This document shows positions 30,497-32,791 of a DNA stretch of 39,892 bases, piece after piece. A program made the position numbers and the translations under genes. Source of the stretch: a virus; the UHGV virus genome UHGV-0038300. One strand, 5' to 3'. How positions within the stretch are numbered: position 1 is the first letter of the stretch; every line of letters starts with the position of its first letter. Under the pieces are notes generated by a model that was not told the origin of the DNA, did not search any database, and worked only from the letters and a program-made list of their open reading frames with translations.

Positions 30497-31297
30497 TTAC
30501 TTGATAAATCCTGCCGCCTTTCCCCGCCTGTATTCCTCCATCAGCCACTGCGCCGGTGTTATTCCCCCAAGGGTGGCGGCGTTAGGCATGCACCCGAAAC
30601 TTCGCCCTGGTGGATGGTAAACGTCTCTCCCTGTGTCTGGAGGTGTACTCATGGGCTCTGGCTTTGCCTGTATGCTGATCACCGGATCGGGTATCTGCTG
30701 TCCGGAAGCCACCTTTTTCGCCCAATCATCGAGCAGCCTGCGCGCGTGTTTCTCAACCTCAATCTCGCTAAGCTGGCGCTGATACATTGCACGGCGGGTA
30801 TCACATACGACCCAGTACATAACCGGATGCCGCCACGGGAATCTTTCGGGACCACCAGGATATAAACTTTTTTCCTTGCTGTACCGGTGAAACTCCGCCA
30901 TCACATCGTCAATGGTGACGCCAAGAACCATCTTGCTGTCTTTGCACCACTTGATGAATTGCCCTGGCGACGGCCAGAACGGAGATTCACTGGCGCGGGC
31001 GTGGCGCATACCAGCAGAAACCTGTTCACGGGTTCGGATCCCACCTTCGGCAAACGCAGCAATCCACTGCTGTTTTGCAGCGACTTCCTGCTCTGGCGTC
31101 TTCAGGTTGGTTACCACTGCCGCCGGAAACAGTTGTTTCAGCTGTTTGAAAAGGGCATCAACAAGCCTCTCTGCTGACATGTTCACCACGTTGTCATTGT
31201 TGGTGTACTGATGCTCATAACCTGACATGCGAGAAAGGGCTTCTCCGTCACGGTTTTGTATCGCGGTAAAAACGTTGTTCACAAGAAATCCTCCCAT
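30497..31297 (-). CDS. Replication protein, lambda P-like (helicase loader)
   Basis: Clear similarity to lambda P (e.g. ...GIRTREQVSAGMRHA...FWPSPGQFIKWC... versus lambda ...GITTMEQVNAGMRVA...FLPSPGQFVAWC...). Confidence 0.8.
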   Translation of the reverse strand: MGGFLVNNVFTAIQNRDGEALSRMSGYEHQYTNNDNVVNMSAERLVDALFKQLKQLFPAAVVTNLKTPEQEVAAKQQWIAAFAEGGIRTREQVSAGMRHARASESPFWPSPGQFIKWCKDSKMVLGVTIDDVMAEFHRYSKEKSLYPGGPERFPWRHPVMYWVVCDTRRAMYQRQLSEIEVEKHARRLLDDWAKKVASGQQIPDPVISIQAKPEPMSTPPDTGRDVYHPPGRSFGCMPNAATLGGITPAQWLMEEYRRGKAAGFIK

Positions 31298-32094
31298 GCT
31301 TCAGGGCTGTTCCAGTGCGGAACGTTGTTATCAGGTAATGTTGATTGCTTCTGTCTGCTAATCTGCAGCCGCCTTGCCAGCTTCTGCTCCCACTGTGCCT
31401 GATGGTATGCCTTACCCTCAGCCATCCAGTAAATTCTGAACTCTGCAAGTTCCTGTGCCGTTGGCAGACTGTCTAGGTAGATCCCCTGCAATGAGCTTTT
31501 CCGAAGAAAGTCATCTGATGGGTGCCATTGTTCATGCATGACAAATTTGCCTAATTGCCCTGGCCCACCAGGAGGAACAAAGTTATTCATCACGGCGTTG
31601 TTTGCGCCGGGGTCATGAGGCACAGAATCCCCGGTTTTTGTCCTGCTCTCCCTCTCTTGGTTAAATGACTGGTTATATGACTGGTTCTGGATCCCGTTTT
31701 TGGGATCATTCAACATCCCGTTTTTGGGATCATTCAACATCCCGTTTTTGGGTATATTCCCGTTTTCGGTAACATTACCGTTTTCGGGTTCATTACCCCC
31801 TTCCCGGTTGCCTTTAATGTTCCCGTTTTTGGTTATATTAAGAGAGAAAACCCGCACTCTTTTCGTCGCTCCCTTTCTCTCTCCGGTATCTGAAATAAGC
31901 CCCATTTTCATGAGCGATATAAGTCCGGCCTGCACGGTTTTTTTATTCAGGCAAGTGTCTTTAACGAGGCGTTCTATGCTGGGGTAGCAGAGGTTATATT
32001 CATCGGCTCTGTCAGCCATCGAGAGCAGTATGAGCTTTAATGACGAGCTACCTGGATCTGTCTCCCAGGCCCAATCTGTTGCATGTCTGCTCAT
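31279..32094 (-). CDS. Replication initiator (lambda O analog) with an N-terminal winged-HTH and iterons inside the gene
   Basis: N-terminal HTH-like region, a central repetitive NGN-rich linker encoded by DNA iterons, and a C-terminal DnaT-like region; located directly upstream of the P-like gene. Confidence 0.7.
   Translation of the reverse strand: MSRHATDWAWETDPGSSSLKLILLSMADRADEYNLCYPSIERLVKDTCLNKKTVQAGLISLMKMGLISDTGERKGATKRVRVFSLNITKNGNIKGNREGGNEPENGNVTENGNIPKNGMLNDPKNGMLNDPKNGIQNQSYNQSFNQERESRTKTGDSVPHDPGANNAVMNNFVPPGGPGQLGKFVMHEQWHPSDDFLRKSSLQGIYLDSLPTAQELAEFRIYWMAEGKAYHQAQWEQKLARRLQISRQKQSTLPDNNVPHWNSPEAWEDFL
31691..31840. repeat. Origin-type iterons: 5-6 tandem repeats with core (t)cccgttttt/cgg, first two copies 24 bp each
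   Basis: atcccgtttttgggatcattcaac is repeated exactly at 31691-31714 and 31715-31738, followed by degenerate copies; embedded in the initiator gene as for the lambda origin. Confidence 0.7.
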
Positions 32095-32109
32095 GATTAA
32101 TCTCCGCTA

Positions 32110-32310
32110 TCAGCTTGAATGTTGTGGGGAGGAATTAATCATGATCTGCTTAATCTCTGCCCTGATACGACGGTTTGATTCCATGGTGCACTCAACACAG
32201 TGTCCGTTGTAAACCCAGCGTTCACTGTCATGTCCGTGCTTACATGTTTTTCCGGTGTAGTAGCGTTTAAGTCCGCGCTTTGCGGCATCAATACGTGTAA
32301 TGATTTCCAT
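32110..32310 (-). CDS. Small zinc-ribbon protein (possible cII-position regulator)
   Basis: MEIITRIDAAKRGLKRYYTGKTCKHGHDSERWVYNGHCVECT... has a C..H...C..C pattern; start codon uncertain (the ORF extends to a TTG at 32373). Confidence 0.4.
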   Translation of the reverse strand: MEIITRIDAAKRGLKRYYTGKTCKHGHDSERWVYNGHCVECTMESNRRIRAEIKQIMINSSPQHSS

Positions 32311-32406: not shown

Positions 32407-32460
32407 AATAGATATGAAAAGACCGCCGGGTGGCGGTCTACAGAGGGTTGTAGCTGGATA

Positions 32461-32691: not shown

Positions 32692-32726
32692 AGCTATTGC
32701 CTGATATTTATTTCAGATAATAAATA

Positions 32727-32791
32727 TTCACCCATAAGGTAACAAAAATCAAGGATAGTTACCTATGAGGTGCATTTACCTGTTGGGTAAT
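32727..32791. promoter_or_regulatory. Right operator region: three 17-bp sites at 32727-32743, 32758-32774 and 32775-32791 between the divergent cro-like and repressor genes
   Basis: TTcACC-CATAA-GGTAAC, GTTACC-TATGA-GGTgcA and TTTACC-TGTTG-GGTAAT; tripartite arrangement as in lambdoid OR. Confidence 0.65.

Follow-up and report, generated by a model that had tools for sequence, protein, structure and literature searches.

Does a cluster of tandem repeats inside a phage replication initiator gene serve as an origin of replication, as a set of control sites, or only as the code for a repetitive stretch of protein? This question is raised by virus genome UHGV-0038300, analysed here over a stretch of 39,892 nt (hereafter, the window). 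The initiator gene of the window is 97–99% identical to that of Escherichia phage phiV10 and its relatives, which form the genus Uetakevirus of epsilon15-like temperate podoviruses, and among 5,426 complete genomes of E. coli, 424 carry it as a prophage gene. The gene and its neighbour are laid out as follows:

31279–32094, minus strand: initiator gene, 271 aa, encoding an N-terminal HTH_36 winged helix, a repeat-encoded linker and a C-terminal DnaT-like domain (ORF; Pfam; phrog_1032)
31834–32094, minus strand: codons of the N-terminal DNA-binding domain, aa 1–87, the presumed iteron reader (alignments)
31339–31545, minus strand: codons of the DnaT-like C-terminal domain, aa 184–252 (Pfam; solved DnaT chains)
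31282–31320, minus strand: codons of the C-terminal tail PHWNSPEAWEDFL, a candidate loader-binding peptide (comparison of initiators)
30497–31297, minus strand: lambda-P-family helicase loader gene (Pfam Phage_lambda_P PF06992, E 1.5e-56; phrog_109; phiV10 annotation)

The repeat search groups six copies into a single family, with start positions 31691, 31715, 31739, 31757, 31775 and 31820. Numbered in the coding direction, they are:

31820–31835, minus strand: iteron 1, degenerate, coding strand TAACCAAAAACGGGAA (repeat search)
31775–31790, minus strand: iteron 2, degenerate, coding strand AACCCGAAAACGGTAA (repeat search)
31757–31772, minus strand: iteron 3, degenerate, coding strand TTACCGAAAACGGGAA (repeat search)
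31739–31754, minus strand: iteron 4, coding strand TACCCAAAAACGGGAT (repeat search)
31715–31730, minus strand: iteron 5, full dyad ATCCCAAAAACGGGAT, within the exact 24-bp unit (Tandem Repeats Finder, repeat search)
31691–31706, minus strand: iteron 6, full dyad ATCCCAAAAACGGGAT, the copy adjoining the 12-mers described below (Tandem Repeats Finder, repeat search)

The core of the family, CC(A/G)AAAACGG, is present in six copies at 31691–31835 and nowhere else in the 39.9-kb window. For the plus-strand form of the 10-bp core, CCGTTTTNGG, 0.33 occurrences were expected in 39,892 bp against the six observed, a number reached in none of 100 shuffles. Each full copy is a dyad built around an A-tract, ATCCC-GTTTTT-GGGAT (ATCCC-AAAAAC-GGGAT on the coding strand). 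All six copies fall within nt 260–404 of the gene, between the codons for HTH_36 (aa 18–67) and those for the DnaT domain (aa 184–252). A reading made earlier from the letters of the window had described two exact 24-bp copies with degenerate copies beside them inside the initiator ORF, encoding a repetitive NGN/PKNG linker. This description holds: the output of Tandem Repeats Finder contains a 24-bp unit repeated 2.6 times at 100% identity (31691–31752) and an 18-bp unit repeated 3.1 times (31742–31797), the first two members of the family by position are exact 24-mers, and the translation within ORF 31279..32094 runs NITKNGN...NEPENGNVTENGNIPKNGMLNDPKNGMLNDPKNG. The span of 31691–31840 given in the same reading starts correctly and ends slightly early, as the sixth copy extends to about 31835–31843.

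Other features of the repeat region were recorded as well. Three GATC (Dam) sites, at 31690, 31704 and 31728, lie within iterons 5 and 6 or immediately adjoin them. On the plus strand, antisense to the initiator gene, terminator-like hairpins are seen at 31701–31720 and 31725–31744; their stems are weak and consist of the arms of adjacent iteron dyads followed by T5, and they are probably by-products rather than functional terminators. A seventh site in the 45 bp that separate iterons 1 and 2 was considered and rejected: this gap has just a likeness to the right-hand half-site (AACCGGGAA), and the peptide encoded there, NIKGNREGG, is variable among near-identical relatives.

All six copies in the window share one reading frame, so that the window by itself is compatible with a DNA signal and with a peptide repeat, and the argument from frame rests entirely on relatives. 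The copies might be a protein feature only, that is, a flexible linker rich in N, G, P and K that expands and contracts by slippage and has no function as DNA. Such an account fits the single frame of the window, and it fits the way in which copy number shifts: among relatives with nearly identical N-termini, the number of cores ranges from 4 to 9 and the gene from 792 to 888 bp, in units of 12, 18 and 24 bp that leave the ORF intact. We liken this variation to the difference in iteron number between lambda, with four, and Stx phages, with six (PMC7466680).

To collect relatives, matches to the N-terminal domain were sampled at one genome per species, giving 80 loci at 40–87% identity that include Vibrio, Pseudoalteromonas, Acinetobacter, Providencia, Marinomonas, Edwardsiella and Sphingomonadales. 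Nearly all of these loci carry, directly after the domain, a cluster of 4–11 copies of NNNCC(A/G)AAAACGGNNN. The strict core occurs 122 times on the coding strand of 25 kb of linker and eight times on both strands of the 454 kb elsewhere, a density about 250- to 275-fold higher in the linker. With a relaxed core, 188 copies are found in the linker and 15 elsewhere, and the orientation is nearly uniform (188 matches on the coding strand, three on the opposite strand).

Unlike the copies in the window, the copies in the relatives are not confined to one frame. Relaxed cores are distributed 113/43/32 over the three reading frames, 34 of the 80 loci use at least two of them, and spacings of 17 and 22 bp are found beside 24 bp. 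One DNA motif is thereby translated into unrelated peptides, PKNG, QKR(D/N) (QKRD among them) and VPKTE, and an A stands six bases upstream of the core in 96% of the copies, whichever frame is used. Reading of the same motif in all three frames argues for selection on the DNA and not on the peptide. A wider sample of 120 full-length cluster representatives, drawn from a library of 1.84 billion proteins, shows the same behaviour: at least two iteron peptide signatures follow the domain in 82 representatives, and signatures of two frames are present in 41.

The outer arms of the motif vary by lineage while remaining complementary, being ATCCC..GGGAT in the window, GTTCC..GGAAC in Acinetobacter and GTACC..GGTAC in another lineage, and one relative (L102) carries the perfect 16-bp palindrome GTCCCAAATTTGGGAC. 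Arm complementarity at the outer positions was 0.57, 0.66 and 0.43, compared to 0.36, 0.56 and 0.32 in shuffles, with none of 1000 shuffles reaching the observed value at any of the three positions. In a set of 70 distinct alleles taken from near-identical prophages, 5 of 60 core sites are polymorphic, compared to 22 of 90 in the rest of the iteron block (p=0.016); at third codon positions, polymorphism is 11% in the cores and 25–36% elsewhere in the gene. Taken together, the change of frame, the single orientation, the covarying dyad, the conserved upstream A and the quiet third positions largely exclude, at the level of sequence comparison, a function of the repeats as linker peptide only, an explanation we regard as scarcely credible. 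The earlier proposal that the repeats are initiator-binding iterons inside the initiator gene is supported by the same homologues, in which a dyad-symmetric motif is kept at the same place across 80 species and in three frames.

If the repeats are a DNA signal, the question becomes which protein reads them. The N-terminal domain matches 3,732 clusters at 50% identity (E<=1e-3) and always stands at the N-terminus of the protein. In 58 diverse proteins examined, HTH_36 is present in all, followed by a C-terminus that is DnaT (6), Phg_2220_C (3), DnaA_N (2), lambda-O-type or of no known kind. Edwardsiella phage GF-2 combines the same N-terminus (50% identity) and three copies of ATCCCAAAATTGGGAT at 24-bp spacing with a C-terminus of lambda O type. 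The converse is found in Enterobacter phage Tyrion and Salmonella phage SPN1S, which keep the DnaT-like C-terminus and differ in both N-terminus and in-gene repeats. Judged by these combinations, the repeats belong to the N-terminal domain, whatever C-terminus is attached to it. An N-terminus that reads the origin and a C-terminus that recruits the loader is the classical division of labour of O-type initiators.

The differing repeats of the last two phages can be described briefly. In SPN1S, direct and inverted copies of GTCCGC at gene nt 330–420 are followed by an (AGAGA)n run; in Tyrion, GGATCAG is repeated three times at gene nt 380–400. In-gene origins seem to be general among Uetakevirus phages, each with its own specificity. 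Vibrio phage H2 (positions 2001–2700 of the locus) has a homologous gene with four exact 24-bp iterons and a stop codon soon after; the annotated protein is 166 aa long and lacks the C-terminal domain, and the gene may be a split or frameshifted initiator.

The sites could also be read by another factor, such as a host protein or a phage repressor, or serve recombination or packaging. Nothing specific speaks for such a role, apart from the three GATC sites in or beside the iterons. We consider it very unlikely, given that the motif changes together with the initiator N-terminal domain from Vibrio to Acinetobacter to Sphingomonadales and is swapped for other repeats where that domain is swapped; in addition, we found no DnaA boxes near the repeats and no relevant Rfam family at the repeat region. 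The repeats are very probably binding sites of the phage's own initiator.

Directly past the last iteron, towards the C-terminal codons, comes a second repeated element. The corresponding features are:

31658–31686, minus strand: 2.5 tandem 12-mers, coding strand AACCAGTCATAT AACCAGTCATTT AACCA, a candidate DNA-unwinding/helicase-loading element (Tandem Repeats Finder)
31627–31640, minus strand: iteron-like half-site past the 12-mers, plus strand ATCCCCGGTTTTTG, uncertain (read from the sequence)

Tandem Repeats Finder gives the unit as TGGTTAAATGAC, repeated 2.4 times at 31658–31686; placed after the last iteron of the window, the tandem 12-mer reads AACCAGTCATNT, and phiV10 has one unit more. 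At the place of the half-site, phiV10 and BP9 carry ATCCCCGTTTTTTG. Across the family, two to three tandem 11–13-mers of RAAYC type directly follow the last iteron at 41 of 54 loci, compared to 0.6% of control segments. Their spacings are 12 (35 cases), 13 (27), 11 (5) and 10 (2) nt; in 32 of the 41 loci, one or more spacings are not divisible by three, and one 11-mer is read, for example, as either QNQS or EPVI. In the 70 alleles, the 12-mer segment varies at 2 of 40 sites and the C-terminal part of the gene at 65 of 276 (p=0.006). Klebsiella phage ST13-OXA48phi12.5 keeps three copies of GAACCAGTCA (gene nt about 365–410) next to iterons that are different. The family as a whole conserves this order, in which iterons are followed by tandem 11–13-mers and then by an A-rich run.

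With respect to base composition, the sequence-only reading had pointed to a more AT-rich stretch after the repeats, which we can confirm weakly: 31646–31700, the segment adjoining iteron 6 further along the coding direction, is 57–62% AT compared to 52% for the genome, equivalent to the 72nd–87th percentile of 40-nt windows. What stands out there is the 12-mer repeat and not the composition, and the most AT-rich 40-mer of the gene (70% AT, 31813–31852) overlaps the first iteron instead. Over the family as a whole, mean AT content rises to 67–69% between +20 and +50 nt past the last iteron, compared to 55–58% elsewhere. Because of their position, we infer that the 12-mers are the unwinding/helicase-loading part of the origin, in a role that would be comparable with that of the AT-rich tract of lambda and of the short repeats found where oriC and iteron plasmids unwind.

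Purely regulatory iteron clusters occur in plasmids and in P1, and this established precedent allows for a reading in which the repeats bind the initiator mainly as control sites (autoregulation, titration/handcuffing, incompatibility) while synthesis starts elsewhere. The modest AT-richness of the adjoining segment is compatible with such sites. We nevertheless hold this reading to be unlikely, since a second motif cluster is absent from the whole window and the conserved succession of iterons, 11–13-mers and A-rich run is the layout of the proven lambda and phi80 origins.

The protein itself is assigned as an initiator by its match to phrog_1032, 'replication initiation protein' (E 3.8e-108). 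Pfam identifies HTH_36 with E 1.8e-10 and the DnaT DNA-binding domain PF17948 with E 4.8e-15, and residues 180–265 match the solved E. coli DnaT chains 9zbt, 6aep and 4ou6 (E about 1e-20 to 3e-20). The best 120 matches of a protein homologue search are all near-identical E. coli proteins, among which related database proteins measure 279 to 311 aa compared to 271 aa here. Related proteins are named 'primosomal protein' or 'DnaT-like' in databases because their C-terminal 70–85 residues match DnaT; on the present comparisons, proteins with these names would be O-type origin-binding initiators. A single-sequence AlphaFold model of the initiator was unusable, with a mean pLDDT of 35.8.

The C-terminal tail PHWNSPEAWEDFL is common to initiators with unrelated N-termini, namely those of Tyrion, phiES15 (annotated as 'O') and Klebsiella ST13-OXA48phi12.5, and each of these tail-bearing initiators precedes a P-family loader gene related to that of the window. 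The tail may be a loader-binding peptide. In 9 of 80 near-identical prophage loci, it is replaced by DEVWDEINSRTS.

The surroundings of the gene are those of a replication module. The loader gene is directly downstream, and its start overlaps the initiator stop codon; the likely start codon is the GTG at 31282. Upstream of the initiator are a small gene, a terminator-like hairpin (32420–32439), a cro-like gene, a promoter-like site (32717–32745) and a divergent repressor-like gene, so that the locus is organized like the early right operon of a lambdoid phage. The initiator start codon and its ribosome-binding site are flanked by an 11-nt inverted repeat without mismatches (TCATGATTAAT / ATTAATCATGA, 32091–32101 and 32134–32144), which may act as a translation-controlling RNA hairpin or as an operator. 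The cumulative GC skew has its minimum at about 31–33 kb, the same place as the switch between the divergent operons; being confounded with the switch in transcription direction, this minimum adds nothing to the case for an origin.

Extrachromosomal records with related modules were also found. NZ_CP148379.1 is a circular E. coli plasmid record of 8,461 bp containing an initiator with 49% N-terminal identity, iterons and P. Its genes are a dicA-like repressor, a cro-like gene, ydaT, the DnaT-like initiator, P, hokD, rem and cargo, with no other replication gene annotated in the record. By analogy with lambda-dv, this record may represent a natural replicon of that kind, in which case it would be a weak hint of origin activity, or else an assembly artefact. 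Two E. coli 'plasmids' of 41,027 bp, NZ_CP079771.1 and NZ_CP079768.1, similar in length to this phage genome, encode an N-terminal domain 100% identical to that of the window and may be phiV10-like phages assembled as episomes.

Overall, we consider it likely that the six repeats are initiator iterons which, together with the 12-mers, form the replication origin of the phage, where the initiator would open the DNA and the P-type loader and DnaB would be recruited. More specifically, early transcription from the cro side would cross the gene and lead to the production of the initiator, whose N-terminal winged-helix dimers would bind the iterons as dyads of about 16–20 bp. As the initiator fills the iterons, of which the best sites (4–6) adjoin the 12-mers, the complex of protein and DNA, which includes the A5 tracts, would strain and open the 12-mer segment at about 31650–31690. 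The DnaT-like C-terminal domain and the tail would then recruit the P-type loader and, with it, host DnaB. Each step of this scheme is a prediction from sequence, from the binding of the initiator and the opening of the 12-mers to the arrival of the loader and the firing of the origin.

For lambdoid phages, an origin that lies within the initiator gene is textbook knowledge (PMC7466680), and the case of the window is an unannotated but ordinary instance of this arrangement. In the searchable literature we found no origin or iterons described for phiV10, epsilon15 or DnaT-like phage initiators, and no origin is annotated under the initiator gene in the public records inspected or among the near matches listed. 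The analysis thus provides a concrete origin candidate for phages of the phiV10/Uetakevirus type, which serve as O157 reporters and engineering chassis. It also provides a clean example of coding sequence dictated by a DNA signal, as the motif is read in three frames. The picture of the lambdoid replication module working remains unchanged, and the interest lies mostly in the annotation and in the conserved 11–13-mer element.

More tentatively, and with less confidence than doubt, we hypothesize that the HTH_36 domain, the iterons and a triplet of GAAYC 11–13-mers constitute a portable cassette of 'origin plus reader', the triplet being an undescribed sequence-specific unwinding/helicase-loading element. 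If true, the cassette would be widespread among prophages of the Gamma-, Beta- and Alphaproteobacteria, where the C-terminal domains joined to it and recruiting the helicase would be of at least five unrelated kinds.

How does this putative origin compare with known systems? In iteron plasmids (RK2, pPS10, F, R6K), initiator-binding iterons adjoin short tandem repeats in the unwinding element, to be compared also with the 13-mers of oriC; in the window, iterons adjoin the 12-mers of the putative unwinding element. According to PMC4081077, the initiator can bind short repeats of unwinding elements in single-stranded form. The iterons of plasmids are normally found outside the rep gene, whereas those of the window lie inside the initiator gene and the role of its 12-mers is presumed. 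E. coli DnaT (primosomal protein I) has its C-terminal DNA-binding domain in common with the window protein, which differs in its unrelated N-terminal domain (HTH_36), in its place in a phage early operon rather than a chromosomal PriA/PriB/DnaT context and in its O/P-type module, and shows no match to the DnaT N-terminus. From these features, we take the window protein to be an initiator and not a restart factor.

The closest parallels are with lambda and phi80. In the ori of lambda and of Stx phages, as in the window, the middle of the initiator gene, where the linker is encoded, contains dyad direct repeats with a central A-tract; in lambda, an unwinding region on the downstream side is followed by the P-type loader gene, and in the window the 12-mers, as the candidate unwinding element, are followed by such a gene as well. 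The lambda iterons (ATCCCTCAAAACGAGGGA) share the plan of those in the window and are two to three bases longer, with four iterons of 18–19 bp compared to six of about 16 bp spaced 18–45 bp apart. The flank is a strongly AT-rich tract in lambda and a 12-mer repeat of 57–62% AT in the window. With repeats between the codons of two domains, a phrog_1032 initiator and a P-family loader next to it, the proposal of a lambda-type origin within the initiator gene is well supported as far as the arrangement of the locus can tell.

The initiator had at the same time been assigned to a non-lambda family. This assignment is right in terms of Pfam, as the window protein yields HTH_36 and DnaT only and no match above the gathering score to Phage_rep_O (PF04492), the family of lambda O and phi80 gp15; in BLAST, the protein likewise gave no significant match to lambda O and no alignment to phi80 gp15. 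As a statement about evolution, it is too strong. Lambda O and the window N-terminus both match PHROG 678 and 345, over overlapping profile regions, and hhalign with larger profiles aligns the window N-terminus with O over 35 helix-turn-helix columns at 70% probability (E 4e-5), compared to 12% probability for a 5-sequence profile against lambda O alone.

In phi80, whose gp15 is 39% identical to lambda O, record JX871397 marks four binding sites for gp15 within gene 15, and three of these sites have the sequence TTCCCGAAAACGGGAA or close variants of it. The core of these sites, CCGAAAACGG, is identical to that of window iterons 2 and 3, while iterons 3, 5 and 6 differ very little from the 16-bp dyad TTCCCGAAAACGGGAA. 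As in the window, the phi80 sites (four, at 21-bp spacing) lie within the gene and a P-like gene, gene 14, comes next; its product is 35% identical to the P-type loader of the window. An iteron core shared with the gp15 sites suggests that the family is a distant relative of O, and we read the window initiator as a probable distant branch of the O-like winged-helix initiators in which the type of binding site has been conserved.
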